DNA of 64,000 nucleotides from a virus (IMGVR_UViG_3300020469_000008:32001-96000); one strand, 5' to 3'. Shown: positions 7,055 to 55,895, counted from the first letter of the stretch. Notes: generated by a model not told the origin, from the letters alone. Numbers and translations are program-made.

Positions 7055-9022
7055 ATGGCAAATAATGACAGAAATTTATTTAAGCGCTTAACAAGGCTTT
7101 TTAGAAGTGGGCCAGTTGTCAAGCGTAATGTTTTAAGAAATGCAGACAAAAACTACACATCAACAGCGTTTGACCAGTTTAGAAAAAATCAGTCGCAAGT
7201 GTATAGTAATGCAATGTCTGCATATGGTACGTATGACAGAATGGCACGTTACTCTGATTTTTCAGAAATGGAATACACACCTGAGATTGCTAGTGCACTG
7301 GACATATACTCAGAAGAAGCAGTTTCTGCAGATGAAGCGGGTAAAACCTTACACATTTATTCAGATAATACAAAGATTAGACAAATACTTACTGAGCTAT
7401 TTTATGATACACTTAATGTTGAATTTAATATGTCTTCATGGGTGAGAAATCTAGTAAAATACGGTGATTGCTTTCTGTTTAATGATGTTCATCCTAAACA
7501 CGGTGTAATTAATTGCATGCCTTTGCCTATATCAGAAGTAGAAAGAGAAGAAGGTTTTGATCCTAACGATCCTATGGCAGTTCGTTTTAGATGGGTAACA
7601 CAGGGTAATCAGGTATTAGAAAACTGGCAAGTATCACATATGAGGCTTTTAGGAAACGATGCATTTTTACCTTACGGTTCTTCTATTTTGGAACCAGCAA
7701 GAAGAATATGGCGCCAGATGATTTTATTAGAAGACGCAATGATGGTGCACAGAATTGTTAGAGCACCTGATCGCCGTGTTTTTTACATTGATGTTGGTAA
7801 TGTACCTCCCGAAGAGGTTGCAAATTATATGGAACAAGCACAGTCATCGCTTAAACGTACTTCTATTGTTGACAAGAACAACGGTCGGGTTGATTTACGA
7901 TATAACCCACTTTCTGTTGATGAGGACTATTTTATTCCTGTTCGAGGTGGAGAAAGTGGGACAAAAATTGATGTTGTGGGTGGCCAGACAATTCAAGGTG
8001 AAACACAAGACGTAGAATATATTCAAAAGAAATTATTTGCTGCTCTTAAAATACCGAAAGCTTACTTGGGTTATGACGAGGGTTTAGGCGCCAAAGCAAC
8101 ACTATCACAAGAAGATATACGATTTAGTAGAACAATTGCCAGAATTCAAAGAACAATCTTATCAGAGATGAACAAGCTTGCAATTGTTCATCTATATTGT
8201 AACGGATTTAGCGATGAAGATCTACTAGACTTTAAATTAATGTTGTCAAATCCGTCGACAATTGCACAACAACAAAAATTAGAACTGTATAAGTCTAGAT
8301 TTGATGCTGCTGGTGCTGCCTTAGGTGTTTCTGGTGTTGTTGATAGAATTTGGGTGCAAAAAAACATACTAAGGTTTACAGACGAAGAAATCAAAGCAAT
8401 TCAAAGCGGTCTTCGTCAGGACAAAGTCTCTGACTTAGAAATTGAAGCCACACAGATAACAGCTCCTGAAGGGCCGGAAAATCCAGCAGCTGGTGCACCT
8501 CAATTTGACGGAGGAAACGTTGAACTTGGTGGTGGTGGTATTGATTTAGGTGCACTTTCTGAACAGCAGTCAATAGAGGATGATGAATTTCCAATTCGTG
8601 TTCAAAAATTAATTGAGCTCAATGTTGGTGCTTTAGAAGAAGAAGAAGATGATGATGACGATTTAAACAAAAGTAGCACTGATAATTCAAGCTCTTTAAG
8701 GACAGGTGTTAATCCGTCCTTAAAGACTAGACGCAGAGATGATCCTGTTGACGCCGGAATGAGCAAGTTAAATTATGATCTAAAAGCATCGATTAAAGCA
8801 CCAAAGGCACCTTCTGCTAAAGATTTGCTTGAGTCAGATGATGATTTTAATATTGAAGATTATCTAGACGAACAAATAGTTGTTAATGCAACAATGAATA
8901 ACACATTAAAGTCGACATTACAGCGTTTTGATAATACTTATGGTACGCAACAACGCAACGTTAAGAATTCCATTATAATTTCTGAGAACAATTCTTCAGG
9001 AGAGGACACAGATGAAACATAA
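7055..9022 (+). CDS. portal protein (T4 gp20-like) with long acidic C-terminal extension
   Basis: RIVRAPDRRVFYIDVGNVPP, EDYFIPVRG, DVEYIQKKLFAALKIPKAYL; directly follows terminase. Confidence 0.93.
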   Translation: MANNDRNLFKRLTRLFRSGPVVKRNVLRNADKNYTSTAFDQFRKNQSQVYSNAMSAYGTYDRMARYSDFSEMEYTPEIASALDIYSEEAVSADEAGKTLHIYSDNTKIRQILTELFYDTLNVEFNMSSWVRNLVKYGDCFLFNDVHPKHGVINCMPLPISEVEREEGFDPNDPMAVRFRWVTQGNQVLENWQVSHMRLLGNDAFLPYGSSILEPARRIWRQMILLEDAMMVHRIVRAPDRRVFYIDVGNVPPEEVANYMEQAQSSLKRTSIVDKNNGRVDLRYNPLSVDEDYFIPVRGGESGTKIDVVGGQTIQGETQDVEYIQKKLFAALKIPKAYLGYDEGLGAKATLSQEDIRFSRTIARIQRTILSEMNKLAIVHLYCNGFSDEDLLDFKLMLSNPSTIAQQQKLELYKSRFDAAGAALGVSGVVDRIWVQKNILRFTDEEIKAIQSGLRQDKVSDLEIEATQITAPEGPENPAAGAPQFDGGNVELGGGGIDLGALSEQQSIEDDEFPIRVQKLIELNVGALEEEEDDDDDLNKSSTDNSSSLRTGVNPSLKTRRRDDPVDAGMSKLNYDLKASIKAPKAPSAKDLLESDDDFNIEDYLDEQIVVNATMNNTLKSTLQRFDNTYGTQQRNVKNSIIISENNSSGEDTDET

Positions 9023-9852: not shown

Positions 9853-10455
9853 ATGTCTGCAGAATTAAATGTTTTAAGAGAATGGACACCTATTTCTTGT
9901 TCAAAGGAAATGTTAAAGGAATCCCGCGAGCAATATGGAAAAATAATGTTGACGGGAATCATCCAAAAAGCAAACACCTTAAATCAAAATGGGCGAGTAT
10001 ATCCTAAGCCGATTCTAGAAAGAGAAATAATGAATTACCAAAAGATGATTCGTGAAAATAGAGCGCTGGGAGAATGCGATCATCCTGATTCGTCTGTAGT
10101 TGAATTAAAAAATGTATCACATATTGTGAGAGAAGCTTACATGCAAGGTGATGATGTCTATGGTAAGATAGAGATACTAGACACTCCTAGCGGTAAAATT
10201 ATACAGTCTTTAATTGAAAGTGGCATTACGCTTGGTATTTCATCACGTGGCGTAGGCTCAACTGTATCACAGGGTGGTAATCAGGTTGTACAAGACGATT
10301 TCCAGTTAATTTGTTTTGATATGGTGTCTGAACCGTCAACTCCCGGTGCATTTATGCTAAAGGAGCACAAAGTTTTAAGAAAAGATTTAGATAAAATTTT
10401 TAACCAAACAGATAAAATCGATAGAATGTTTAATGAGATTCTGAGGTGGGAATGA
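9853..10455 (+). CDS. prohead core protein protease (T4 gp21-like)
   Basis: GIIQKANTLNQNGRVYP, ALGECDHP, NVSHIV, LGISSRGVGS, FDMVSEPSTPGAF; start placed at ATG 9853 after GGAG. Confidence 0.93.
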   Translation: MSAELNVLREWTPISCSKEMLKESREQYGKIMLTGIIQKANTLNQNGRVYPKPILEREIMNYQKMIRENRALGECDHPDSSVVELKNVSHIVREAYMQGDDVYGKIEILDTPSGKIIQSLIESGITLGISSRGVGSTVSQGGNQVVQDDFQLICFDMVSEPSTPGAFMLKEHKVLRKDLDKIFNQTDKIDRMFNEILRWE

Positions 10456-10982
10456 ATAGTAAAAGCAAGACAGCACTCAAAAATATTGTTAAAGAATGTT
10501 TAATTGAAATATTGGCAGAAGGTTTGGTAGGTAATAACAAAGCTACACTTAGAGAAGCGAGAGAGCTTCGTGGGACCATACAAGAGTCATATGAGAAAAA
10601 CGCGAGTCGAAGAATTGTTGAAACAAAATTCCAACAACCAACCCAAGTTACAAAATCGCGACAGACTGCACAACGAAGACCGTCATACTTAGATAGTATT
10701 AAGATGGGTGTTGATTCAGCTTCAGAAAGACAATCAAGCATGATTAAAAATACAGTTAAAAATTTAACCAATGATCCAGTTATGAGTGATATATTAGCTG
10801 ATACTGCTATGACAACCCTACAAGAACAGAAAGAGGGGTCTAGACCATCTGGTCCAAGCGTAATGGCAGGGGGAGATCAAGCAGCAAAAATTGTTGATCA
10901 ATCGTCACCTGACGAGTTGTTCGGGGGTCAAGCTAGTAAATGGGCTGATTTGGCATTTTCACCATCAATTAGAAAGGGATAA
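10452..10982 (+). CDS. hypothetical head-module protein
   Basis: ATGA overlap with protease; N-terminus KTALKNIVKECLIE resembles the shared leader; IxE/LxE sites. Confidence 0.7.
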   Translation: MNSKSKTALKNIVKECLIEILAEGLVGNNKATLREARELRGTIQESYEKNASRRIVETKFQQPTQVTKSRQTAQRRPSYLDSIKMGVDSASERQSSMIKNTVKNLTNDPVMSDILADTAMTTLQEQKEGSRPSGPSVMAGGDQAAKIVDQSSPDELFGGQASKWADLAFSPSIRKG

Positions 10983-11026: not shown

Positions 11027-11239
11027 ATGCGTCGTATTATTAAGTTAACACCTGCAGCCATTCAAAGAATAATTGTAGAAGAAAAAGAAAAATTACAAGT
11101 TGAAAATAAGCAAAAGCTTTTAGAACAACTTAGACTACTTAAAAAGATTAAAAATAGACAAATTAATTCACTTAGTGAAGCCAAGCAGCTTCATAACATG
11201 AAGAAAAAATTAATTAAGTCGATTAAAGGTGAAAAGTAA
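11027..11239 (+). CDS. small basic protein with leader-like N-terminus
   Basis: GGAGG RBS; ATAGTTA 29 nt upstream; IKLTPAAIQRIIVEE. Confidence 0.7.
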   Translation: MRRIIKLTPAAIQRIIVEEKEKLQVENKQKLLEQLRLLKKIKNRQINSLSEAKQLHNMKKKLIKSIKGEK

Positions 11240-12379: not shown

Positions 12380-13852
12380 ATGAGTAAACTATTCGAAGAA
12401 GCAATAGCAGATGCAAAAAAACTCAAAGAGGTTGCAGAAGAAAACGCAAAAAAAGCGATTCTAGAATCTGTAACACCTCAAATTAGAGAGTTTATCGAAG
12501 AACAATTATTAGAAGAAAACAAAGAGGAAACATACTCGTTAAAAGATGAGAATAAAGACGAAATGTTTGATACTCTTGAAGAAGAAGTTTATCTTGACGA
12601 GAGCGCTTTGGCGTCCTTAGTTGAGCTAATTGGTGAAGATAATTTAGATTCCCTAAATGAGTCTAAGTCACAAGAAGCACTTTTTAGTGCTGTAAAAGGT
12701 GCAGTTGCCACAATGGACGACGACCAACGTGAACAACTGTTAAATTTATCGCACAAATTAAATGAAAGTGCTAATCATTTATCTAAGACAGAAAAAGGAG
12801 AAAACATGTCTAAGAAATATTATGAAGTTGACCTTAGAGCACTGAGGGAAGCATTAGAAGAAGACGCATATGATCAAACTGATGAGACTATGCATGAAGA
12901 AGAAACTGATATGGCAGAAAAGGCAGATGATGAGTTAAAAGAACTTTACGAAGAATTTTCTGCTTTACTAGAACAAGACGAAGAACCAGAAGCTGATGTA
13001 GAAACCCCAGAAGCGGGTGCAGCAGCAGAAGGCGGAGAAGACATGATTGCAAAAGACGAAGTTGAAGATGCAATTCGTGCTCTTTTAGATGATTTAGCAT
13101 TAGATCTTGAAGACGAAGGCGCAGGAGCAGAAGGTGGAGCTGCTGAGGCTCCAGCCGGCGATGAGGCACCTGAATTTGATTTAGCTGCTGCTATGGGCGG
13201 TGGTGATGATGAAGAAACTTTAAACGAAGTATTTGAAGTTGATCCTCGTGTTTTACGTCAAGAATTAGGAAGAATTAGAAGAATGGTTGCTGAAGGTAAA
13301 GTTGATCACCACTTCGGTGGTAAAGGTGGCGGAAACGCTGGAGTCGACGGATCTTACGGTGGTAAAGGAAAACAAAACGCTGGCGTTAACGGCGCATTTG
13401 GTGGTGGTAAGGAAGGACAAGATGCTTTCACAAACCCACCCCAGATAAACAAACTTAACGAGGCAATTCGCCAACTGAGACGTCAAAATCGATCTCAGAA
13501 CGAGAAACTGAACAAATACAGAGGAGCTGTTAATTCTCTTCGTGAACAGTTGGAAGATCTCAATTTATTCAATGCAAAGCTTTTGTATGTTAACAAATTG
13601 TTGCAAAACAAAGGCCTGAATGAGAGTCAGAAGAAGTCTGTTATTAAGGCTTTGGATGAAGCACAATCTTTGACTGAAGCAAAATCTTTGTATAAGTCAC
13701 TAACTGAAACGTTTAGTCGTGGCGGTGAAAGAAAAACAATCTCAGAATCTCGTGTTCTTGGAAGTTCTTCTCGACCAACCACTTCTTCTCAGTCAAGCGC
13801 AACATCTAATAACGGTGAGTTAAGTAGATGGCAACGTTTGGCCGGTTTATAA
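12380..13852 (+). CDS. prohead scaffold/core protein (T4 gp22-like)
   Basis: Very acidic coiled coil starting MSKLFEEAIADAKKLKEVA, directly upstream of the MCP; many [LI]xE sites; C-terminal NAKLLYVNKLL...RWQRLAGL. Confidence 0.8.
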   Translation: MSKLFEEAIADAKKLKEVAEENAKKAILESVTPQIREFIEEQLLEENKEETYSLKDENKDEMFDTLEEEVYLDESALASLVELIGEDNLDSLNESKSQEALFSAVKGAVATMDDDQREQLLNLSHKLNESANHLSKTEKGENMSKKYYEVDLRALREALEEDAYDQTDETMHEEETDMAEKADDELKELYEEFSALLEQDEEPEADVETPEAGAAAEGGEDMIAKDEVEDAIRALLDDLALDLEDEGAGAEGGAAEAPAGDEAPEFDLAAAMGGGDDEETLNEVFEVDPRVLRQELGRIRRMVAEGKVDHHFGGKGGGNAGVDGSYGGKGKQNAGVNGAFGGGKEGQDAFTNPPQINKLNEAIRQLRRQNRSQNEKLNKYRGAVNSLREQLEDLNLFNAKLLYVNKLLQNKGLNESQKKSVIKALDEAQSLTEAKSLYKSLTETFSRGGERKTISESRVLGSSSRPTTSSQSSATSNNGELSRWQRLAGL

Positions 13853-13894: not shown

Positions 13895-15847
13895 ATGAGT
13901 AAGTCATTTACTTTGAATCAGTTGACTGAAGGTATCCGTGATCGTCACGTAGGCCAAGAAGCAACAAGAATTCAAGAAAAGTGGACCAGAACTGGTCTTC
14001 TTCGTGGTCTACAAAACCACGCTCGCGAAAACATGTCACGTTTACTTGAGAACCAAGCAGCTCAAGTACTTCGTGAAGCAAACACCTTAGGTGGCACATC
14101 TGGTGACGCTGGTCGTGTTGATGGATTTTCAAACATCGCATTCCCAATCGTTCGTCGTGTATTTGGTGGATTAGTTGCAAATGAATTGGTATCTATTCAG
14201 CCTATGTCTCTTCCAAGTGGACTCTTGTTCTACTTAGATTATACATACGGTTCTGATGTAGGTGGTGATGCAACTGCTTCAGGAAATGCATTGACAGCAA
14301 CTGGTGGATCAACTTATAATCAAGGTGATTCTATTTACAACAACCCAGGTGGAGCCGGTGTTCGTACTGGTTCTGACGCAACTGGTGGTCAATACGATCT
14401 AGTTGGTTCTGGTTACTCTAAAGTGCACGGTAATGTTGCATTTAGCGCAACTGGTAATGCTCTTAACGGTGCAATGGGTGGAGCTGCAAATCAATCTTTT
14501 ACAATTGCAGCAAATCTAACTACAAGTGGTGCTGATGGTAAACTACTTCATTTTGATCCACAACTTTCACGTGAAATCAGTGAAGGTACTAACAACTATC
14601 AAGTTCTTTTCCTCTCTGCTTCTCTCTTGCGCGAAGCTTCTGGAAGACAAAGAAGAGTTGATCCTACTTTGATTAAAGAAGTTGCTCTTTATTCTGAAAA
14701 CGGTACTAATGGACGAGGTCCCGGTAATTTAGTATCAGGACTGACTGTTCCTGGTAGTAACATTCAAGGTGGTAGCAACATTTGGAACGTTAGACGTCTT
14801 AATGAGCTAGGTACTTTGACACACAGTGCTGCTGGTACAACTTTCACTCCTGATCCTTTCGCATCAGTAAGTGCAACAGGAACTGTACTTAAGACAATCG
14901 TACAAGGTGCAGCTACTTCGATGGCAGCTGTCGATACAGGATTAAACTTGTCTGCTTCATTCCCAGTAGCTGATCAATTGTCTGAATCTGGAGACGCTGA
15001 TACTGGTTCTGTTGTGGTAATTCCATCATTCGAATCAAACTTTGCTTCTGAACCTACACCAGTAATTCCAGAAATTGATATCAAAATTGAGTCAATTGCT
15101 GTTACAGCTACAACTCGTAAGTTAAGAGCTCGTTGGTCACCAGAACTCGCACAAGATCTTAATGCTTATCACTCAATGGATGCTGAAGTTGAATTGACTC
15201 AAATCCTTTCTGAGCAAATCGCATTAGAAATTGATCGTGAAATTCTTAATGACCTTCTTGTTGAAGCGAAAGGTGCTAACTTCTTCTGGTCACGTGCTCC
15301 TGGTAAGTTCGTTAACAAGAGAAGTGGTGTTGCTGAAAACTTGGCGTCATCTCTTTCAACTGGACCACAATTTACTGGTACAGTTCGTGAGTGGTACGAA
15401 ACATTGGTTGAAACTATCATTGACGTTGCTAACGAAATCCATAGAAAGACTCTTCGTGGTTCTGCGAACTTTATCGTAGTTTCACCTGAAGTTGCTACTA
15501 TCTTCGAAGCTTCTGTATTGTACAAGCCAAGTGTTAAGATCGATGGTCAAGGTCAAGTTGCCTTAGGTAGCATTGGTGCTGAAGCTATTGGTTCTCTTTC
15601 TAACAGATTTACTGTTTACAAAGATCCTTACTTCCCACGCAACAAGATTCTTGTAGGATACAAAGGTGGTTCATATCTTGAGTCTGGATACGTCTATGCT
15701 CCATATGTACCGTTGATTGTAACTCCAACAATCTTCGCACCAGAAGACTTCACACCAAGAAAAGGTGTAATGACTCGTTACGGTAAGAAAATGGTTCGCG
15801 CCGACTTCTACGGAACAGTTACTTGCTTGGATATGGATATTATCTAA
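13895..15847 (+). CDS. major capsid protein (T4 gp23-like)
   Basis: AFPIVRRVFGGLVANELVSIQPMSLPSGLLFYLD, RKLRARWSPELAQDLNAYH, YAPYVPL, FTPRKGVMTRYG; followed by a strong terminator. Confidence 0.95.
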   Translation: MSKSFTLNQLTEGIRDRHVGQEATRIQEKWTRTGLLRGLQNHARENMSRLLENQAAQVLREANTLGGTSGDAGRVDGFSNIAFPIVRRVFGGLVANELVSIQPMSLPSGLLFYLDYTYGSDVGGDATASGNALTATGGSTYNQGDSIYNNPGGAGVRTGSDATGGQYDLVGSGYSKVHGNVAFSATGNALNGAMGGAANQSFTIAANLTTSGADGKLLHFDPQLSREISEGTNNYQVLFLSASLLREASGRQRRVDPTLIKEVALYSENGTNGRGPGNLVSGLTVPGSNIQGGSNIWNVRRLNELGTLTHSAAGTTFTPDPFASVSATGTVLKTIVQGAATSMAAVDTGLNLSASFPVADQLSESGDADTGSVVVIPSFESNFASEPTPVIPEIDIKIESIAVTATTRKLRARWSPELAQDLNAYHSMDAEVELTQILSEQIALEIDREILNDLLVEAKGANFFWSRAPGKFVNKRSGVAENLASSLSTGPQFTGTVREWYETLVETIIDVANEIHRKTLRGSANFIVVSPEVATIFEASVLYKPSVKIDGQGQVALGSIGAEAIGSLSNRFTVYKDPYFPRNKILVGYKGGSYLESGYVYAPYVPLIVTPTIFAPEDFTPRKGVMTRYGKKMVRADFYGTVTCLDMDII

Positions 15848-15952: not shown

Positions 15953-16270
15953 ATGATGAAAACCACAAGAAAGCAGCTACAAAAACTAATATTAGAGGCA
16001 ATGACAGGTATAGCATCGATGCCGTCAGCAGAAGGTGTTGATCAAATAGAAGAAAACCCAATTGTCAAAGATATTAATATTGAAATGATTGAGCAAATTT
16101 TAAATGAAGGCATGATAGCAATAGGTAATCAAGGTAATGACTACTATGCTGATACAAAAGCAATGATTGATAATGACAATACTATAATTCTTACTGCAGG
16201 ACCTCTAGATACACCATTTGCTGAAATAATAGTAAATTTTAAAGATTTAAGTCACATCACAAAAACTTAA
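15953..16270 (+). CDS. leader-bearing hypothetical protein (putative head internal protein)
   Basis: GAGG RBS; MMKTTRKQLQKLILEA; ATATTTA upstream. The track's longer start runs through the terminator. Confidence 0.7.
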   Translation: MMKTTRKQLQKLILEAMTGIASMPSAEGVDQIEENPIVKDINIEMIEQILNEGMIAIGNQGNDYYADTKAMIDNDNTIILTAGPLDTPFAEIIVNFKDLSHITKT

Positions 16271-16354
16271 AATTATTTTACATTACTTCTTGTTGGTATA
16301 GTGTATTACGTGCATATCGCACAATTCACACATTACATACACACAGGAGGGAAT

Positions 16355-16567
16355 ATGAGTGGAAATCCTTACAGCCTGCGAGCAGGTTTATTGTCACAAG
16401 CAGAAAGTATCTTATCACATAGATATCATTCAGAATACGAAAGAATTAGATGGTTATGTGACAGAAACTTAATCGATCCAAAGACAGTAACGTGGCCAGA
16501 ACCACCAAAGTCTGATGACATTATTGCTGAAGCAGAAAAATTGTATAAGTTTGTACAAACAAAGTAA
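16355..16567 (+). CDS. small hypothetical phage protein (NPYxLR...EAEKLYKFV type)
   Basis: AGGAGG RBS before ATG 16355; 70 aa. Confidence 0.7.
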   Translation: MSGNPYSLRAGLLSQAESILSHRYHSEYERIRWLCDRNLIDPKTVTWPEPPKSDDIIAEAEKLYKFVQTK

Positions 16568-16616
16568 GAAAAATCATTTCTATCTAAATAATTAGTAATG
16601 ATATAATGGAGTTATT

Positions 16617-17075
16617 ATGCGTCTAGATAGAAACAGACTAAGAAAATTAATCTTACAAGAAATGACCAGTGCGATGGAATATGGCTCACGTGGGGAAGAT
16701 TCTGGCACCCTTGTTCGACCCCCGGAGCGTAGTAAATTCAGCACAGGTACCGGACCTCTTGGCAGACAAGAGATGAAAATATCTCCTGAACAACTAAGAT
16801 TGCAACAACAAAGTTATAGGTCAAATTTTCTACCGGCAGAAGAAGTAAATCCTGAGTTTGTCAGGCTTGTTGATGAAGCATCAGACGCGATATATGAGTT
16901 AGCTGAATTTATTGGTGGAACCGGGATACGCCCAGAAGACTTTCCAAAGTTCTATGAAGCTTGGCATCCATGGGAATCAGTAATGTCAAAACTACGTAAT
17001 CAGTATGGCAATAAGGTTGATGTTGAACTTAATAGTATGCGAATGAACCCTGATAAGATCCCTGTTTTTGAGTAG
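16617..17075 (+). CDS. leader-bearing hypothetical protein (putative head internal protein)
   Basis: MRLDRNRLRKLILQE; GGAG RBS; ATAATTA at 16588. Confidence 0.7.
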   Translation: MRLDRNRLRKLILQEMTSAMEYGSRGEDSGTLVRPPERSKFSTGTGPLGRQEMKISPEQLRLQQQSYRSNFLPAEEVNPEFVRLVDEASDAIYELAEFIGGTGIRPEDFPKFYEAWHPWESVMSKLRNQYGNKVDVELNSMRMNPDKIPVFE

Positions 17076-17134
17076 TCATTAATAATTAATAACAAGCTTT
17101 GCAAATAGAGTATAGTTACTAATAGGAGGTAATT

Positions 17135-17791
17135 ATGCTCTTTTTATATTTTCTATTAACATTTGCAACTGGCCAGGAACCAGAAGTACCAGAAGTTACC
17201 GCAGATGAAACAATTGTTGTTGAGGCACATAGAGATTACGAGGTGTATGTTGCACCGACAGTTATGGATATTCAATCGACTGAGGTTGAAGCTGTAATGG
17301 CAAAGAAAACTGTTTTTAGTTATTCATCACGTTATGCCAACGGTGCAAAAGTTAAGAACGAAAGAGGTACAGGTTACGAAAACGTAACTATAAATCATAA
17401 AATAAAAGTATATGATGAAGACACAATAGAATATGTTTGGGACAACTGCAATTACAAACGTGAACCTAAGAAGTGTGCATATCAAAACAATCACATGTTA
17501 TTAGAAACAATTGTGACCGTTGATGATCATCAAATAGTTGTTAATATGATACTATACGATTCTGATTTGACTGTATTGGGATCGTCTGTTTATACAAGTG
17601 ATTCTAGGATTAGTTGGATTCGACAACAAGAAACAACAGTTATTCAACAACAAGGGATGATGGGTAGCCAAACAATGATTCATCAGCCCAAGGAAGAGTT
17701 ACCACTAAAATGGCTAATTCCTACAAATTTACTTGATAAACATATTTGGCAAGCTAGTGCGCTACTTTGGACAGGCGTAAGACTTAACTAA
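17135..17791 (+). CDS. exported protein with N-terminal signal peptide
   Basis: Short hydrophobic N-terminus MLFLYFLLTFATG then acidic QEPEVPEV; AGGAGG RBS. Confidence 0.7.
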   Translation: MLFLYFLLTFATGQEPEVPEVTADETIVVEAHRDYEVYVAPTVMDIQSTEVEAVMAKKTVFSYSSRYANGAKVKNERGTGYENVTINHKIKVYDEDTIEYVWDNCNYKREPKKCAYQNNHMLLETIVTVDDHQIVVNMILYDSDLTVLGSSVYTSDSRISWIRQQETTVIQQQGMMGSQTMIHQPKEELPLKWLIPTNLLDKHIWQASALLWTGVRLN

Positions 17792-18125
17792 TATATTTAC
17801 GCCAAGCGTGTCGCTTTCTTTTTGCTAAATAATCTTCGTCGTACATTTTGCGGTATGCTTCTTGTTCGAAAGGTATGTTCATGTAAGCTTCATCGTTGGT
17901 CATTCCTTTGACTTTACCTTTAAGCCAATACCATACATAGAGAATATAAAAGAATACCACCAGAAGTTCTTTCTGCTGTTCTATGTGTATTATTTCATGT
18001 CTAACAGTAACATCAGACATTTCATCTCTAGAAATAATAAAAGGAAAAAGAGTAATTGCACCAATATTAATAAATATTGAAAGATAAACAGGTAACTTGC
18101 TGTTTTGGATGATTATTGGTTTCAT
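17784..18125 (-). CDS. small membrane-associated HExxH protein (putative zinc metallopeptidase)
   Basis: AAAGGAG RBS on the minus strand; RHEIIH, hydrophobic segments, PFEQEAY. The only credible minus-strand gene. Confidence 0.75.
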   Translation of the reverse strand: MKPIIIQNSKLPVYLSIFINIGAITLFPFIISRDEMSDVTVRHEIIHIEQQKELLVVFFYILYVWYWLKGKVKGMTNDEAYMNIPFEQEAYRKMYDEDYLAKRKRHAWRKYIS

Positions 18126-18193
18126 AGATTTCTCCTTTAACTTTGATAAGTGACAGTATAATTATACATTGTCATACAAAAAATACGGAGGTT

Positions 18194-18397
18194 ATGATGC
18201 CAATAAAAAAGACAGCAGCAGAAGAATGTTGCGCAAAATGTGAAAAAGATGTTGCAGCACTCAGAAAAGAGATTGCTGCGCTTAGAAAAGAGCTTGCAAA
18301 GAAACCTGCAGGTGGTGCAGACCCACGAGTAGATGCGATTGTGCAGTTTTTAAAATCTAATTTTAACCAAAAAGCAGCAAAAGCAGGAATTAAATAA
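18194..18397 (+). CDS. small coiled-coil protein with CCAKC motif
   Basis: GGAGG RBS before ATG 18194; heptad repeat VAALRKEIAALRKEL. Confidence 0.7.
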   Translation: MMPIKKTAAEECCAKCEKDVAALRKEIAALRKELAKKPAGGADPRVDAIVQFLKSNFNQKAAKAGIK

Positions 18398-18490
18398 TAT
18401 ATATAAGCAGGCCCGGCACACAGCATAAAGGCGACCCCACCGTCGTGTCGGAATCTTGTGGACAAGTATCTCAAAATTAAGGAGGAAATT

Positions 18491-19000
18491 ATGCCAAAGG
18501 TAACATATACAAATTCGAAAGGATTGTTTCAAGAAACAGGTACAGCGGACGTTAATCTGTCCGGACAAGGAGCATTGTTCGGTCAGCTTTTAAAAATCAA
18601 GACTGTCACAGCCACAACAGTGTTGCGCGATACAGACTCAGGAAAAATTGTTTTAGTTAATCCAGCTGGGACCACACTACTTACATTACCAAGCGTGGCA
18701 AATACAGGATGGACTATCACAATAATTCTTACAGAAGACGCAGCTGGATCTGATCAAGGTATGGGACAAAAAGTTAATATTGACTTAGGTTCAGGCGCTA
18801 ACCTAGCCAATATCGGACAAATACACGAAGTCGATGGGGCCGCCGGCGATTACGCAGTAGCCAATGATGACTTTATTAATTTCTCAGCTAATGCTTCACC
18901 TGGTGACAGAGTCGATATATTTTCAGACGGATCTAGATGGCACATTTACGGTCTAGTAAAGGATGCTACAGAGGCTGTATTCAACACAGCAGCTGGATAA
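18491..19000 (+). CDS. putative capsid decoration/structural protein, paralog 1
   Basis: AAGGAGG RBS; MPKVTYTNSKGLFQE; 169 aa, same length as and colinear with the next gene. Confidence 0.7.
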   Translation: MPKVTYTNSKGLFQETGTADVNLSGQGALFGQLLKIKTVTATTVLRDTDSGKIVLVNPAGTTLLTLPSVANTGWTITIILTEDAAGSDQGMGQKVNIDLGSGANLANIGQIHEVDGAAGDYAVANDDFINFSANASPGDRVDIFSDGSRWHIYGLVKDATEAVFNTAAG

Positions 19001-19012
19001 TAGGAGATTAAC

Positions 19013-19522
19013 ATGCCAAAAGTAACGTATACAAGTTCGAAAGGATTATTTCAAGAAAGCGGAACTGGTGAAGTAAATTTATCAGGTCAGGGTGTTTTGT
19101 TCGGTCAATTAGCAAAAACTGAAGCAATTACTGCTACTACAGCGTTGGCGTCAACTGATACCGGTAAAATATTTTTTGTCGATCCAACAGCAGCAACATT
19201 AATTACTCTACCTGCGCTAGCCTCTTCTTTAAAAGGTTGGTATTGTCGATTTGTGCTCACGGAGAATGAGACAGGAAACGCACAAGCAATGGATGCAAAA
19301 GTTAATATTGACTTGGGCGCTGGAACAGCAAACGTCGGTCAACTTCATGAACTAGACGGCGGGGCTGGAGATTATTTGGTCTCCGGAGACGATTTTGTAA
19401 CATTCTCTGCCAATGCATCAGCAGGAGACAGAGTTGATATCTTTACAGACGGTAATAGATATTATGTTTACGGTTTTGTCAAAGAAATTGCTGAATGTAA
19501 TTTTCATACCGCAGCTAGATAA
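19013..19522 (+). CDS. putative capsid decoration/structural protein, paralog 2
   Basis: MPKVTYTSSKGLFQE; shares KVNIDLG, GQxHExDG, DDFxxFSANASxGDRVDIFxDG with paralog 1. Confidence 0.7.
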   Translation: MPKVTYTSSKGLFQESGTGEVNLSGQGVLFGQLAKTEAITATTALASTDTGKIFFVDPTAATLITLPALASSLKGWYCRFVLTENETGNAQAMDAKVNIDLGAGTANVGQLHELDGGAGDYLVSGDDFVTFSANASAGDRVDIFTDGNRYYVYGFVKEIAECNFHTAAR

Positions 19523-19542
19523 TATCTACATCCTCTATAACT

Positions 19543-19568
19543 AAAGGCACCATTTCGGTGCCTTTTTT
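19543..19568 (+). terminator. intrinsic terminator
   Basis: AAAGGCACC-ATTTC-GGTGCCTTT followed by a T-run. Confidence 0.85.
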
Positions 19569-19644
19569 ATTTTGTAACAAAGCAAAACTAGTGAGACCTT
19601 TGAGCTGTAATTGACCTACTTATACACATCTCTCGGAGATCGAT

Positions 19645-20061
19645 ATGAAGTTAGTTTTTGCTTTGTTTTGTTTAGTCGCAGGACATCTATTAGCGTGGTT
19701 GCAATTAAACGGTCCAATCTTCAATGACTGGTGGAAAGATAACATTTGGATAAGTGCACTATGTATTTCTCCAATGATTTTCTTTTTTAGCATGACATAC
19801 TGGAGTATCACTTACGAGTGGTTGCAAGCTGTGTGGTCAGTTAAATTTATCGCTTATGGCGTAAATATTGTAGTTTTTTCAATTTGTGCCTACTATTTTC
19901 TTGGTGAATCGTTATTTACTATTAGAAACGTTGTTAGTATCATATTTGCAACGTTAATGATTTTATCACAAGCATATTTACCAAAGACGAGTATATTCGG
20001 TGCCGGACAAGAAACCCCAGAGAATGTCGCTGTTAGCGATGGTGTTGATCATTCTGATTAG
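19645..20061 (+). CDS. four-helix integral membrane protein (DMT/SMR-like size and topology)
   Basis: About four hydrophobic segments; YYFLGESLFTIRNVVSIIFA resembles DMT C-termini; GGAG RBS. Confidence 0.6.
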   Translation: MKLVFALFCLVAGHLLAWLQLNGPIFNDWWKDNIWISALCISPMIFFFSMTYWSITYEWLQAVWSVKFIAYGVNIVVFSICAYYFLGESLFTIRNVVSIIFATLMILSQAYLPKTSIFGAGQETPENVAVSDGVDHSD

Positions 20062-20166
20062 CATTTGGTTAACTTATGAGTTTGTAAGGTATGATGTTCA
20101 ATGTTTCTTGAGAAAATACAAAATAAATAAGATAATTAGTAGTGTCTATAATAAAGGAGTAGAACT

Positions 20167-20463
20167 ATGTCATCAATTAATAGAGATAAAATCAGAAAAT
20201 TAATTTTAAAAGAGTTTAAAATGATGGGAATGGCTGATATGGGCCACGGCGGGATGAAGCCAATGGGAATGGTGCACACTGTTGATCACGGCCATGAAGC
20301 TAGTCACGGTCATTCTGTGATGAAATCAGCTAAAAGTTGTGTATCGCGCGAAGATTGCTGTGCTGCAATTATGTGTTTGGTTGAATGTTGCGAATGCCCA
20401 ATCACAAAGCAAGTAATTATGGAATGCTGCCAAGAAATCATGTCTGGTCAACACGATCATTAA
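20167..20463 (+). CDS. leader-bearing Met/His/Cys-rich protein
   Basis: MSSINRDKIRKLILKE; His-rich linker; DCCAAIMCLVECCECP...ECCQE. Confidence 0.7.
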   Translation: MSSINRDKIRKLILKEFKMMGMADMGHGGMKPMGMVHTVDHGHEASHGHSVMKSAKSCVSREDCCAAIMCLVECCECPITKQVIMECCQEIMSGQHDH

Positions 20464-21839
20464 TGAAAATTACTCGACGCCAGCTCCAAATGTTAATACA
20501 GGAGGAGATACGACAGGTGAAACCGGGTTGTTATAAAGTATACCCGAAGAAACCAAAGCGTGGCAAGAAGCGTCGTAAAGCATTATCTAAAAAGTGCAAG
20601 ACTAAGAAAGCAGCAAAGAAGCATTTGGCAGCTATTGAAATTAGTAAATCGATGCGTGAGGATGACAATCCTTGTTGGGATGGTCACAGGCCAGGTGCTC
20701 AAACCGGACAAAAAACAAAAATCGGAAAGAGTGGAAATCGCGTTGCAAATTGTGAAAAGATAAAAGAATCAATTCTTTTAGAGTCCAAATATGAACAACT
20801 CATATCACAATTACCTGGGTTGTCGTTAGTTGTTACTGAAGATATGCCGCGCGGGTTTGCATTAGATTTGCAATACGATGATTACATGATCGCATCTGCA
20901 GAGATAGTAGCTCTTTCTGTAAACCCAGGTGAACCATGTATTCCTGAGACAATGTCAGTTAGTACTATTTATACCTCGCCAGATTATCAGAATTTAGGGA
21001 TTGGTGAACTTTTACTTGATCTGATATTCTACTATGCTAGCACGTTAGACGGAGGAAAAGGACGAGGTATAACAACAGATTTGCGAGGTGGTAACACACC
21101 AATTATTAATTACATAATTCAAAGAGCATTACAAGATCCTGCATACTACAAGCAGACCACCAAAGCCGGTAATGACGAGATGGACTTTTTTGAAAAAACT
21201 AGCGACCCGGATGATGATTGCTACTCCGAATTCCTTGACGGTAAAGGTATATACTGGTTTATTAGTCAAGGTATGTCCGAAGAAGAAGCATTCGAAAAAG
21301 TTGAAATGACAGATGGAGATTTAGGCACGACTAGCTCTTGGCGAAAGAGAGGTATTGAATCTATAAAGCCTATATATGACATGCTCACACAAAGACAGGG
21401 TGCTGATGTACTTTATAGACCAGTCATTAGAAGTCGACAGTTCCAAGATGCTTATCGTAATACACCTACTCCTGAAGAAATACGTTCATTTCAAAGAGGT
21501 AAGAAACTAAAAGAACGCAAAGAACCAAGAAAAGGCACCGGTAAAAAACCAAAAGGTAGTACTAGGCGATTATATACCGATGAGAATCCCAAGGATACTG
21601 TCTCTGTTAAGTTTCGAACTAAGTCTGATATACAGGACACTTTATCAAAAAAAAGCTTTAAGAGTAAAGAACATAAGCGGCAGTCGCAGATAATTAATCT
21701 CATACATCAGCGCGTTCGTGTTGCTTACAAAAATGCAAAAGATCCTGCAACGAAAAAACGCTTAAAGCTTGCGTATGATTATGCTAAACAGAGAAAAGAA
21801 GCCAGTAAGCTTAAAACAAAAAAAATGAGGAAGAAATGA
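20463..21839 (+). CDS. leader-bearing multi-module protein with a GNAT-like domain
   Basis: TAATG coupling at 20463; MKITRRQLQMLIQEE; GNAT motif A-like IYTSPDYQNLGIGELLLDLIF; basic modules on both sides. Confidence 0.65.
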   Translation: MKITRRQLQMLIQEEIRQVKPGCYKVYPKKPKRGKKRRKALSKKCKTKKAAKKHLAAIEISKSMREDDNPCWDGHRPGAQTGQKTKIGKSGNRVANCEKIKESILLESKYEQLISQLPGLSLVVTEDMPRGFALDLQYDDYMIASAEIVALSVNPGEPCIPETMSVSTIYTSPDYQNLGIGELLLDLIFYYASTLDGGKGRGITTDLRGGNTPIINYIIQRALQDPAYYKQTTKAGNDEMDFFEKTSDPDDDCYSEFLDGKGIYWFISQGMSEEEAFEKVEMTDGDLGTTSSWRKRGIESIKPIYDMLTQRQGADVLYRPVIRSRQFQDAYRNTPTPEEIRSFQRGKKLKERKEPRKGTGKKPKGSTRRLYTDENPKDTVSVKFRTKSDIQDTLSKKSFKSKEHKRQSQIINLIHQRVRVAYKNAKDPATKKRLKLAYDYAKQRKEASKLKTKKMRKK

Positions 21840-22342
21840 AAATATCAAAAAAATACCTGAGAAGATTGATAAAAGAATCGATTAACGAGTCCAACTTACC
21901 TCCGGGAACAAGCCAATCAGATATCGATGATTATTATTATGATGGCGATGATGAGACTAGACAGACAGGATTATCAATTGAAATGGCTTTTTATGATCCT
22001 TCTCATCCTCTTTTCAGAGGCTCACCGACAGGTATGTACGGCGATATTGAATTTTCTGATTACGGTGCTGACAGTGCTGATGAGCTATCTGAAGAGCAAT
22101 ATCGAAAAATAGAAGCTGACGTTATGGCTATCGTAAATCATCCAGCATCTAGACTTGAAGCCAACGAAATATATGAAGCTTCGCAGGAATTTATCGATGC
22201 AATGCAAGGAAACAGTAGTAATACAGGCACGTACTTTTATCCTGTGTTCGAAGAGGATGATAGTTACGATGGCCCTGATGATTTTGATTATGATCCTTAT
22301 GAAACTGCAGGTAATTTTGGACCAGATATGTTTTCAAGGTAA
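21836..22342 (+). CDS. leader-bearing very acidic protein
   Basis: MKISKKYLRRLIKES; Asp/Tyr-rich body; ATGA overlap. Confidence 0.7.
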   Translation: MKISKKYLRRLIKESINESNLPPGTSQSDIDDYYYDGDDETRQTGLSIEMAFYDPSHPLFRGSPTGMYGDIEFSDYGADSADELSEEQYRKIEADVMAIVNHPASRLEANEIYEASQEFIDAMQGNSSNTGTYFYPVFEEDDSYDGPDDFDYDPYETAGNFGPDMFSR

Positions 22343-22351
22343 GCTTAAAAT

Positions 22352-23152
22352 ATGAAAGTTACACGACGTAAACTTAAAATGATTATTGAGTCTTTCCTTC
22401 ATGAAGAAAAGGAAAAACTTGAGAAAGATCACGGCAAAAAATATGTTTGCCCAAGCTGTGGTCATGTTCATGATTCTAAAGAAGATATTAATGCCCTCTG
22501 GTCAGGAAAAAAGTGTGTAAAGTGCGGTACAAAATTTGACCTAAAGACCGGTAAAGTTCCATCAGGTAAAGGCAAGGGGCAAAAGTGGGGAATTCATGCT
22601 AATACTAAAAGTGAGTCAAAATTAAGAATGCTTCGCGAAAAAAGACATCGTAGAAAAAGAAAACTAAGAGAAACTGCGAAAGAAACTGAATGTCCTACAG
22701 CGACAACAGACATTAGTGTTAACACAGCTAATCGCGACCGAGCTCGCAAACTTGACTGGATTATATACGGCCCTTTAAATGTAGAATTTCCGGGAAAGTA
22801 TTGGGAAAAGATATCAAAAAAGTGGGGAACAGACGTTGAAGCAGCAAAGAAGTCAAACTGTGGTGTTTGTGTTGCTTTTGATCGATCCCCGAAGATGGTT
22901 GATGAGTGCATACCTGCAATAACGTCTGAACCTGTTGCAGATGAGTTCGGTGTTTTAGGGTATTGCTGGATGCACCACTTTAAGTGTCACAGTGCAAGAA
23001 CATGTAACACTTGGGCAGCTGGTGGTCCGATTAAGACTGATGAAGCGTCAGGCGAATGGTTTGAACGTAATAAAGACGGTGCGTTAAAGAAAGATCCAAT
23101 CGATCCTAATATTTATAGGGACGATACTAATACTTCACAGGAGACAGAATGA
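22352..23152 (+). CDS. leader-bearing Cys-rich (zinc-binding) protein
   Basis: MKVTRRKLKMIIES; CPSC...CVKC ribbon; second domain CPTAT...YGP...NCGVCVAFD...GYCWMHHFKCHSARTC. Confidence 0.7.
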   Translation: MKVTRRKLKMIIESFLHEEKEKLEKDHGKKYVCPSCGHVHDSKEDINALWSGKKCVKCGTKFDLKTGKVPSGKGKGQKWGIHANTKSESKLRMLREKRHRRKRKLRETAKETECPTATTDISVNTANRDRARKLDWIIYGPLNVEFPGKYWEKISKKWGTDVEAAKKSNCGVCVAFDRSPKMVDECIPAITSEPVADEFGVLGYCWMHHFKCHSARTCNTWAAGGPIKTDEASGEWFERNKDGALKKDPIDPNIYRDDTNTSQETE

Positions 23153-24237
23153 AAATATCAAGAAGAAGAATTAGACAACTTATAAGAGAATCCCGCGAAG
23201 AACATATCCAGGGAATTAGAAGTAAACTAGTTAGATTAAATGACGAATTAGAAAACAGACAAGAGGCACTTGATGATTTAAACTATCAATCACAAAGTAT
23301 GATGGATTTTTATTCAGATGACCCATATGCTGGTAGAGATGAGATGATGGCCGGTGACCCGATTAGAGATCAAATATATGACATCGAAAACAAGATAACA
23401 TTGTTGCAAAATCAACTAGATGCTTTAGAAGCTGCTAATGGTGGCCCGGTAGGTCAACTACCAAGGGGTAGAATATTCGAAGAAGTTTCTGATCTGACTG
23501 ATGAAAAACAAAAAGAAATAGATGACGCAGTTGCTGATTATTTAGCCAAAGAAGGCGGAGCAGCATCTGAAGAGGGAACCGAAGATATTGTTCGTGACAA
23601 GGTTGATGGCATTGATGCAAAATCGTATCTTTCAAACAATGAAAGATTTAAGCAGCTAACAGTAAATAACGACCCAATGGACTATTATGATACAACTTTA
23701 ACTGAAGCTAGAGTCTTTATTAGAGAGAAATTAGAAAAAATTGGTTTTTACAAGAAGTACGGTTACGGATTAGATGATATACCAAACAAAACAAAAGCGC
23801 ATGACGATATCATAGGGCACACGTGACTGACCCACGTTAAGCGGAAGGATTCTGCTTTAAATGAAGTTGGTGAAGTTTTATGGCACAGCCTTGATGAAAG
23901 TGGTCACATATCTGTTTATGACGTCGAATGGTCAGACGGTACAATTGAAAGAGATATCCCAGCAATTTTATTAGAAAAAGTTAAAGATAGTAATGCTGTC
24001 GACGAGGTTCACGAGGCACACGGTGTAGACGGACATAGACTAGATTCTGCTATCGATGAGAGAAAGTACAAGAAAAAGAAAAAAACAAAGAAACGTAAAA
24101 AGAAAAAGCATAGTTTGTACCCATATGTGTTTGGGTTTGGCTATCACCACGATGCTGAAAATTATGATTATGATATCGGTGGTGATTATGGAGATTTTGG
24201 AGGCGGCTTCGGTGACGGAGGCGGTGGTGGAGAATGA
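23149..24237 (+). CDS. leader-bearing protein with in-frame TGA at 23824-23826; candidate selenoprotein (362 codons if read through)
   Basis: After the TGA the same frame stays open for 136 codons (LTHVKRKDSALNEVGEVLWHSLDESGHISVYDVEWSDGTIERDIP...GGGGGE) and ends in an ATGA overlap with ORF 24234; hairpin directly after the TGA. Confidence 0.65.
23837..23860 (+). promoter_or_regulatory. bacterial SECIS-like hairpin
   Basis: TTAAGCGGAA-GGA-TTCTGC(T)TTAA: 10 pairs, one bulged U, G-first apical loop; starts 10 nt after the in-frame UGA, loop 20 nt from the UGA. Confidence 0.55.
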
Positions 24238-24641
24238 AAATAGATAAAGATAGATTACGTAGAATTATAAGTGAAAGTATTGATGAAAATATGGGCACTG
24301 CGATGAAAATTAAAACAGATTTACTTTCAACTTATGATCGTTCGTATGTTTCACAAGCATATGAGCTGTGTGATGCATTAGGACTTGATTTTGCACAAAT
24401 GGTGAGAGAAATGTTAAGTCAAAAGATTGATAGTATAGATTTTCAGAATCACGTTCATGAATGGGTTAACGAGTTACTAGCAATTTTTCATACTGGTAAG
24501 GAAAACGACTTTTACATTGAAGATGAAAAATTCGAATCAGATGTTCAAATGGATTTTGCATTTAAAACTATCGCTGATATAACTAAAAATCTTGAAGATT
24601 ATTATGTCAATTTATTTGTAGCGATAGGTCAAGGTCGATAA
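24234..24641 (+). CDS. leader-bearing hypothetical protein
   Basis: MKIDKDRLRRIISES; GGTGGAG RBS lies inside the readthrough frame. Confidence 0.7.
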   Translation: MKIDKDRLRRIISESIDENMGTAMKIKTDLLSTYDRSYVSQAYELCDALGLDFAQMVREMLSQKIDSIDFQNHVHEWVNELLAIFHTGKENDFYIEDEKFESDVQMDFAFKTIADITKNLEDYYVNLFVAIGQGR

Positions 24642-54839: not shown

Positions 54840-55442
54840 ATGCTTTGGAAATATAATGTTGCCCCAGAGGTAAAAGAGCTTGAGTTGCATCACAACCCAG
54901 TAATTATCACAGTAAATAAGTTTGATGAAGATTCAGCAAAAGAATTTAGAACAAAAGTTGCCATGGCACACAACACAGGTCAAAAAATTATTCCTGTTGT
55001 GATTGATTCATATGGCGGGCAAGTTTATTCTTTAATGTCAATGATATCTACAATTAAAAATTCTGAATTACCAATTGCAACTATTGTAGAAGGAAAAGCA
55101 ATGAGTTGTGGCGCAATTTTACTTTCTTTTGGCACTGAAGGATACAGATTTGTAGACAAAGATTCAACAATAATGATTCACGATGTCTCATCTGGCCAGT
55201 TAGGTAAAGTTGAAGAAGTTGTTGCAAGCGCAAAAGAAACTGAAAGATTAAATGAAATCGTCTACAAAATGATGGCTCAAAATTGTGGTAAAAAGGACGA
55301 TTATTTTTTAAGACTTGTTGATAAGAAAAAACATGCAGACTGGTTTCTTGATGCGAAAGAATGTGTTAAACACAATTTGGCAAATCACATTAGAGTCCCT
55401 AAAATTAGTGTTAATGTGGATGTTACTATCGAATTCGAATAA
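54840..55442 (+). CDS. clpP: ClpP-like serine protease
   Basis: IDSYGGQV, catalytic Ser in AMSCGA, His in MIHD, Asp in DWFLDAKE. Confidence 0.85.
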   Translation: MLWKYNVAPEVKELELHHNPVIITVNKFDEDSAKEFRTKVAMAHNTGQKIIPVVIDSYGGQVYSLMSMISTIKNSELPIATIVEGKAMSCGAILLSFGTEGYRFVDKDSTIMIHDVSSGQLGKVEEVVASAKETERLNEIVYKMMAQNCGKKDDYFLRLVDKKKHADWFLDAKECVKHNLANHIRVPKISVNVDVTIEFE

Positions 55443-55472: not shown

Positions 55473-55895
55473 ATGAAAAAAATTAATAGAGATGAATTGC
55501 GTAAATTGATTAATGAATCAATGAGTATCTTGTCGCGACAGGACGCAGAAGTTGATGCATTTATCGATAAAATTGAAAGAATATCAAATGGTAATGCAGA
55601 ACACCCAATGGTAATAACTGATACAATTGTCAGCATGAATCCTGCAACGAGTATGGGAAGTTACTTGTTAGATTATATTCGCGCGCTACCTAGTATGGCA
55701 GATCAATACCCGATTTATCGACAAAGAGCACAGCGTATCAAAGATGTTTTGCTAGCTTTTTTGTTCGCTCTAAATGATCGACACGGCCCACTTGCAGATG
55801 AAAAGACAGCCGCGAATACACCGTATGCACTTGACTTTGTTAAAAAAGCTCTCAGTGTTTTAAAATCAATTGATTACAATCCGAGATACAATTGA
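55473..55895 (+). CDS. leader-bearing hypothetical protein outside the main array
   Basis: MKKINRDELRKLINES; GGAGG RBS; ATAATTA at 55439. Confidence 0.7.
   Translation: MKKINRDELRKLINESMSILSRQDAEVDAFIDKIERISNGNAEHPMVITDTIVSMNPATSMGSYLLDYIRALPSMADQYPIYRQRAQRIKDVLLAFLFALNDRHGPLADEKTAANTPYALDFVKKALSVLKSIDYNPRYN

Follow-up and report, generated by a model that had tools for sequence, protein, structure and literature searches.

The DNA considered here is a stretch of 64,000 nucleotides, called the window in the following, which covers positions 32001 to 96000 of IMGVR_UViG_3300020469_000008, a single 202,054-bp record of an uncultured, T4-related virus that is estimated to be 70% complete. The window contains a head module with genes for the portal, a prohead protease, a prohead-core-like protein, a small basic protein, a protein in the scaffold position and the major capsid protein. 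Downstream of the capsid gene, between 15953 and 24641, lie eight open reading frames (ORFs) whose products start with the same short peptide, referred to here as the leader, and differ in the remainder of the protein, the body; a ninth is located further downstream (Table 1). Positions are those of the window unless genome positions are indicated. Phage proteins that are injected together with the DNA are the first to act during infection and include anti-defence factors, for instance, T4 IPI, which acts against GmrSD, and Alt. To our knowledge, injected proteins outside a few model phages are found only by virion proteomics.

The leader and its census in the genome

The consensus leader, MK[ILV][ST][RK][RK]xL[RK]x[LI]IxE, starts nine plus-strand ORFs of the window and is 13 to 16, typically 14, residues long. 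A first-pass annotation of the sequence had listed eight of these ORFs (starting at 15956, 16617, 20167, 20463, 21836, 22352, 23149 and 24234), all of which were found on the plus strand with the N-terminal peptides described. Two further copies had been proposed, one of which (55473) is a full member, whereas the other (11027) is only a partial variant, which carries AAIQRIIVEE at residues 10 to 19 and is missed by the profile described below. The genes between 15953 and 24641 had also been described as an array. The leaders are real, but the array is not contiguous, with leader-less genes lying at 16301-20061, and it is not a feature special to the head module, most copies being located elsewhere in the genome.

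As had been proposed together with the initial observation, a profile was built from the nine leaders and used to search the complete 202,054-bp genome translated in all six frames (188,263 amino acids). This search yielded 22 matches with E-values between 4.8e-7 and 8.5e-3, plus more down to approximately 10 bits. Each match is located at the initiator methionine of an ORF encoding 98 to 463 amino acids, on the plus strand in all but one case, and the next-best matches are internal fragments scoring below 8 bits. When four further divergent copies are included, one of them initiated by GTG, about 30 genes of the genome are tagged, with the leader always at the first residue. A second array of leader genes is found at genome positions 147.8-157.6 kb, beyond the window, and some adjacent genes of this array have near-identical leader DNA. 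The leader gene at 55473 is surrounded by replication and lysis genes.

The leaders end in [LI]xE, as had been claimed: the motif [LIVM]-x-E is present at residues 11 to 18 in 26 of the 27 main copies (the copy at genome position 155953 lies outside that set), and the glutamate is typically followed by E, A or S. Exceptions at the leader end are E-N in the main copy at 174633 and the divergent copy at 103511, and T-D in the divergent copy at 129014. The leaders have a net charge of +2 to +6, and the hydrophobic residues L8, L11 and I12 are spaced i, i+3, i+4. A Tat or Sec signal was considered and rejected, as no hydrophobic core follows the RR pair, the sequence there being polar or acidic, and many copies lack RR.

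All six leucine codons are used at Leu8 and likewise at Leu11, and 41% of the codon pairs for identical residues differ synonymously. This synonymous variation shows that the leader is selected at the protein level, as a peptide and not as a DNA repeat. The bodies behind the leader are unrelated, as the first-pass annotation had stated. In an all-against-all BLASTP comparison from which the first 18 residues had been removed, only one pair fell below 1e-3 (2e-5, covering 21 residues right behind the leader), next to a few other marginal pairs. Searches of the tagged proteins against Pfam and PHROG gave no match except a weak GNAT and a zinc ribbon.

Table 1. Head genes and leader-bearing genes of the window, with profile scores of the leaders
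Gene product	Position	Strand	Remarks
Portal	7055-9022		phrog_213
gp21-type prohead (head maturation) protease, presumed leader-removing enzyme	9853-10455	+	phrog_207, E 3.7e-53
Prohead-core-like protein; N-terminal region contains leader-like and [LI]xE sites (ALKNIVKE, LIE, ILAE)	10446-10982	+	Between protease and scaffold genes
Basic head-module protein, 70 aa, partial leader AAIQRIIVE↓E (residues 10-18)	11027-11239	+	Weak variant, missed by the profile
Very acidic scaffold (gp22-position) protein, presumed docking surface and protease substrate	12380-13852	+	Directly upstream of the capsid gene
Major capsid protein (gp23-like), 650 aa, predicted maturation site VLRE61↓A	13895-15847	+	phrog_138, E 2.6e-75
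Leader protein 1, 104 aa, MKTTRKQLQKLILE then A	15956-16270	+	25.9 bits, E 1.1e-6; no family match
Leader protein 2, 152 aa, MRLDRNRLRKLILQE then M	16617-17075	+	21.5 bits; no family match
Leader protein 3, 98 aa, Met/His/Cys-rich, MSSINRDKIRKLILKE then F	20167-20463	+	23.5 bits
Leader protein 4, 458 aa, mosaic	20463-21839	+	24.4 bits
Leader protein 5, 168 aa, very acidic, MKISKKYLRRLIKE then S	21836-22342	+	23.5 bits; body net charge -30
Leader protein 6, 266 aa, zinc ribbon and Cys-rich domain	22352-23152	+	20.4 bits; phrog_9188, zinc ribbon
Leader protein 7, 225 aa to TGA	23149-23826	+	20.0 bits; frame open to 24237
Leader protein 8, 135 aa, MKIDKDRLRRIISE then S	24234-24641	+	24.0 bits
Leader protein 9, 140 aa, MKKINRDELRKLINE then S	55473-55895	+	26.3 bits; not in the head module, directly preceded by a ClpP-family gene

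The prohead protease and its candidate substrates

The first-pass annotation had assigned a gp21-like protease to the gene at 9853, and this assignment is borne out by the family match (Table 1) and by the catalytic columns. The protein is 30% identical to T4 gp21, the columns of T4 His85 and Ser140 correspond to H77 and S130/S131, and both columns are invariant across 26 homologues of the clade. Motifs resembling the end of the leader are over-represented in the neighbouring head proteins when compared with the number expected from composition. The triplet [LI]xE occurs 6 times in the prohead-core-like protein (1.5 expected), 26 times, QIREFIE↓E among them, in the scaffold-position protein (10.1 expected, a 2.6-fold excess) and 14 times in the capsid protein (4.9 expected). 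Family searches with the 10446 and 12380 proteins gave no match. The partial leader of the small basic protein at 11027 is retained as SVIKRIIAEE in an orthologue (L005).

T4 gp23 loses its first 65 residues during maturation (PMC5694885), and FLTE ends at residue 65 of the T4 gp23 record. L59, E61 and A62 of the capsid protein encoded in the window align with this FLTE65↓A site and are invariant in the alignment, and VLRE61↓A is thus the predicted cut. Among isolates and GenBank entries, the nearest capsid proteins are those of an uncultured 484-kb phage (49% identity), Flavobacterium phage immuto (45%) and RM378 (41%); IMG/VR contains hundreds of uncultured relatives whose capsid proteins are 60-77% identical.

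Larger relatives possess two tandem capsid paralogues (G001, 139110-142962; G003, 176269-180147), each 64% identical to the window copy; no second capsid copy lies beside the capsid gene in the 64-kb window. Downstream of the capsid gene, the ORFs 18458-19000 and 19013-19522 encode tandem paralogues of 180 and 169 amino acids, which both start with MPKVTYT, have no family match and may be head decoration or other structural proteins. One copy is held at the same position in most relatives examined. The sole minus-strand gene of this block (17784-18125) encodes a membrane-like protein of 113 amino acids with an H-E-x-x-H motif (HEIIH) and without family match.

Tagged proteins and their distribution in relatives

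A degenerate DNA pattern of the leader matched at least 120 IMG/VR stretches, 80 of which were scanned for tagged proteins. In these 80 stretches, at least 194 proteins are tagged (median length, 110 amino acids), and the arrays comprise up to 10 of them. After removal of duplicates and very short proteins, the remaining 178 fell into 152 BLASTP clusters. Few Pfam matches were obtained with 114 cluster representatives, among them a pentapeptide-repeat protein (E 3.9e-32) and an AAA_33 kinase-like protein. Three contigs of 242-293 kb have 8 to 15 strict leader matches each, all in forward orientation, whereas a reversed control pattern gave 0; the protease and the capsid protein have counterparts in each of these contigs, with 68-70% and 64% identity, respectively. 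In the 484-kb phage LR756508, five leader matches with up to 2 mismatches are located near head genes, and LR756511 has no strict leader match. A full-text literature search for leader strings and two module strings found no relevant paper.

The first-pass annotation had described the leader as a modular tag, and the relatives agree with this description: the leader behaves as a portable unit, which is retained in orthologues and is followed by shuffled domains. Orthologues in related contigs, whose bodies are 29-61% identical, retain leader variants, as seen for leader protein 3 in four contigs (L007, L010, L039 and L040). In two of these (L039 and L040), the C-terminal 105 residues of the 20463 protein correspond to a protein in its own right, which has its own leader. 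Two database homologues (P0019 and P0021) contain an internal leader-like LEAIIREE just before the basic module that follows the N-terminal leader in the 20463 protein, which suggests that processing at more than one position may occur in some proteins. Between the capsid and neck genes lies a hypervariable slot, whose gene content differs among relatives.

The 20463 protein itself is composed of the leader, a basic module, a GNAT-like core and a widespread basic C-terminal domain of approximately 100 amino acids. The GNAT signals consist of a weak Pfam match (E 0.004), leads from the atlas search and the top matches of a Foldseek search of the PDB with the predicted fold, which are nearly all GNAT enzymes but have E-values of at least 1.9e-3, with none below 1e-3; these signals are weak but point the same way. 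The predicted core is thus probably a GNAT-like acetyltransferase fused to basic modules. The C-terminal domain (21468-21836) is an abundant marine-phage module: it is found in more than 1,700 metagenomic proteins with 75-85% identity, its partners include GH24 lysozyme with LysM, amidase and GNAT, a weaker copy is present in Pelagibacter phage HTVC033P, and a whole-protein scan assigned it no Pfam family.

The leader of the 22352 protein is one residue shorter and ends in MIIE, followed by S. Its predicted fold is confident only for the zinc ribbon and the leader helix, whereas the predicted local distance difference test (pLDDT) score of the Cys-rich domain is below 50. The Cys-rich domain (22690-23149) contains invariant cysteine and histidine residues and has 649 homologues from marine metagenomes; in 109 of the 120 homologues listed, a hydrophobic-hydrophobic-x-E is found within the N-terminal 24 residues. 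Many leader variants are found among these homologues, including KKYIAE followed by G, which is close to the T4 capsid-targeting sequence (CTS). Isolate phages encode distant copies of the domain, for which the annotation reads high-potential iron-sulfur protein (HiPIP-like), and in Actinomycetia phage DSL-LC01 the HiPIP-annotated homologue directly precedes the capsid maturation protease and capsid genes. The neighbours of a further homologue on a 162-kb contig gave no informative family matches. The tagged 22352 protein is Cys-rich and possibly an Fe-S protein.

Some features of the leader genes and their surroundings were noted in passing. The 23149 gene has an in-frame TGA (23824-23826), which is followed by 136 open codons that overlap with the leader gene at 24234 via ATGA. 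No ATG, GTG or TTG occurs for 96 codons after this TGA. The 202-kb genome contains no second case of this kind, and the interruption could stem from read-through or recoding, from a nonsense mutation that arose recently or from a sequencing error. The T4 late-promoter motif TATAAATA is found in the genome 5 times in forward and 12 times in reverse orientation and shows no sign of driving leader genes. Another motif, ATAATTAG(T), is present in eight plus-strand copies, at window positions 16588, 20132 and 46302 and genome positions 104704, 106283, 114611, 124820 and 136844. Seven of the eight are located approximately 5-30 nt ahead of an ORF start, and four of these ORFs are leader genes; the copy at 106283 forms the loop of a terminator-like hairpin. 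The motif may be a promoter or regulatory element. The ClpP-family gene upstream of leader protein 9 has counterparts with 69-74% identity in the three large relatives and is also found in LR756508, LR756511 and Mel-JY01.

A probable capsid-targeting propeptide and its alternatives

The known system that comes nearest to the leader is the CTS of T4, a peptide of 10-20 residues that is removed by gp21 (PMC5694885). The internal proteins of T-even phages have been described as diverse defence proteins that have only the CTS in common (PMC3012670). Similar to the CTS of T4 IPI, IPII, IPIII and Alt, the leader is a short N-terminal peptide common to otherwise unrelated proteins, with MK at its start and hydrophobic-I-x-Glu at its end, the next residue being A, S or E; IPII and IPIII read MKTYQEFIAE and continue with A. 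In both cases, the genome encodes a gp21-family protease and a capsid protein with the same motif at the aligned maturation cut, and the cargo genes are located in hypervariable slots. We therefore consider the leader to be probably a T4-style capsid-targeting propeptide, which is removed after [LI]xE. The capsid-cargo interpretation of the first-pass annotation is thus supported in part: the protease, the [LI]xE end, the capsid site and the portability of the leader, which can be assessed from sequence, hold, and packaging in the head, removal of the leader, injection and a role in anti-defence are suggested by analogy with T4.

According to this model, the basic amphipathic leader helix would dock the cargo onto the very acidic scaffold core during prohead assembly late in infection. 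An electrostatic docking is suggested because the leader is basic and the scaffold strongly acidic. The protease would then cut after the leader glutamate, thereby freeing the mature cargo within the shell, and the cargo would exit together with the DNA at the next infection. Swapping of cargo genes would be enabled by the conserved leader-coding DNA and the hypervariable slot between the capsid and neck genes.

The differences to T4 are as follows. The leader comprises 14 residues and is strongly basic, whereas the CTS of T4 has 10 residues and is slightly acidic; the genome encodes about 30 tagged proteins in comparison to roughly four or five in T4; and the cargoes, which are known here from sequence alone, are mostly acidic and not basic, with copies spread over the genome. 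Giant phages such as phiKZ, 201phi2-1 and SPN3US likewise possess many head-internal proteins that are processed after glutamate by a T4-related protease, and their propeptides have been inferred to target proteins to the prohead (PMC5694885). However, these propeptides are mostly longer than 100 residues and do not share one consensus, and the gp21-related protease recognizes (S/A/G)-x-E with a small residue at P3, which is Leu or Ile in the leader.

Several observations weigh against a capsid-targeting propeptide. No homology to the T4 CTS is apparent beyond the first two and last four positions (MKTYQEFIAE versus MKITRRQLRKLIxE), and the leader is either an analogue of the CTS, or a homology is hidden by its short length and its divergence. 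The [LI]xE ending helped to define the leader set, so that its conservation is partly circular and not independent evidence. Most copies sit outside the head module, and the cargo bodies are acidic in 18 of 27 cases, whereas T4 internal proteins are basic and bind DNA. The distant T4-like phages immuto, Mel-JY01, RM378 and P-HM2 have no strict leader match, and for three of these four the annotation includes a prohead or capsid protease or a T4-type core gene. Co-folding of the protease, using an alignment of 26 rows, with the N-terminal 40 residues of the 21836 protein gave a score of 0.01 (mark 0.32), which decides neither way. A last point, the co-occurrence of the leader with a ClpP-family protease, is taken up below.

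The leader could also be a propeptide of the prohead protease while the tagged proteins are head-internal parts of assembly or core, for instance, auxiliary scaffold, DNA-condensing or counter-ion proteins, which are degraded or retained and not injected as effectors. The scaffold and the head-core proteins 10446 and 11027 indeed contain leader-like motifs, many bodies resemble T4 gp67, gp68 and the internal peptides in their acidity and low complexity, and the data say nothing on ejection. However, the cargo is very diverse and turns over fast, as seen from the 152 clusters among 178 proteins and the hypervariable slot, which is more in keeping with accessory or arms-race genes than with parts of an assembly, and some cargoes have enzyme-like domains (GNAT, AAA_33 kinase) or pentapeptide repeats. 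We thus regard this alternative as rather unlikely.

Another suggestion is that the leader addresses a different partner, either as an N-terminal degron for a phage ClpP and a host unfoldase, thereby allowing a timed removal of the tagged proteins, or as a handle for a chaperone or modifying enzyme. This is improbable, even though a ClpP-family gene (54840-55442, PF00574, E 2.6e-24) lies directly upstream of the leader gene 55473 and each of the four leader-bearing genomes that were tested encodes a ClpP-family protease. ClpP is also encoded by two phages without a leader-pattern match (53% and 30% identity), and the co-occurrence therefore neither supports nor excludes a degron. A PF04055 search of the genome, whose record is estimated to be 70% complete, found no radical-SAM gene, whereas 14 of 14 control genomes matched. 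A degron would also leave unexplained why the leader ends in hydrophobic-[LI]-x-Glu, which matches the gp21 motif and the aligned capsid site.

The charge of +2 to +6 and the i, i+3, i+4 spacing of the hydrophobic residues, together with the helix predicted for the leader in the 22352 fold model, would be compatible with an uncleaved basic amphipathic helix that sends proteins to the membrane, the nucleoid or a replication factory, or that binds DNA. Such a helix explains neither the near-invariant terminal glutamate nor the internal leader-like sites at domain junctions, and we consider this reading very improbable. That the shared N-terminus is a functionless by-product of cassette shuffling at a recombination site or of selection on translation initiation, as the near-identical leader DNA of some adjacent genes in the second array, the A-rich 5' ends of the leaders and the evident domain shuffling might suggest, is likewise very improbable, since the residues are kept despite high synonymous variation and the hydrophobic and charged positions are conserved over 14 codons across phages whose capsid proteins are 49-77% identical. 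Recombination at the leader is compatible with a capsid-targeting propeptide and is not its rival.

It is tempting to speculate that the capsid-targeting leader might be a lineage-wide, exchangeable address label, with which uncultured marine phages of a large T4-related clade, with sizes of 140-480 kb, load and inject well over 150 protein families, nearly all of them without known folds, and that some of these, which have internal leader-like sites, are polyproteins cut into several cargoes. We put this wider proposal forward tentatively and think it less probable than not; the arsenal, which would be polymorphic, would include the probable GNAT acetyltransferase, the Cys-rich protein that is possibly of the Fe-S type and the pentapeptide-repeat protein, which is DNA-mimic-like.

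The principle of capsid targeting is known, whereas this tag and its scale of about 30 proteins are new. If the leader is a capsid address, approximately 30 genes of this genome and hundreds of families from marine metagenomes, nearly all of which are dark matter, could be flagged as candidate injected proteins, and the proteins that these phages inject could be listed from sequence alone by means of the tag. Furthermore, the leader would be directly usable as a tag to package foreign proteins in phages of a non-model lineage, and the principle described for T4 would scale from a handful of cargoes to a large share of a genome's accessory genes.

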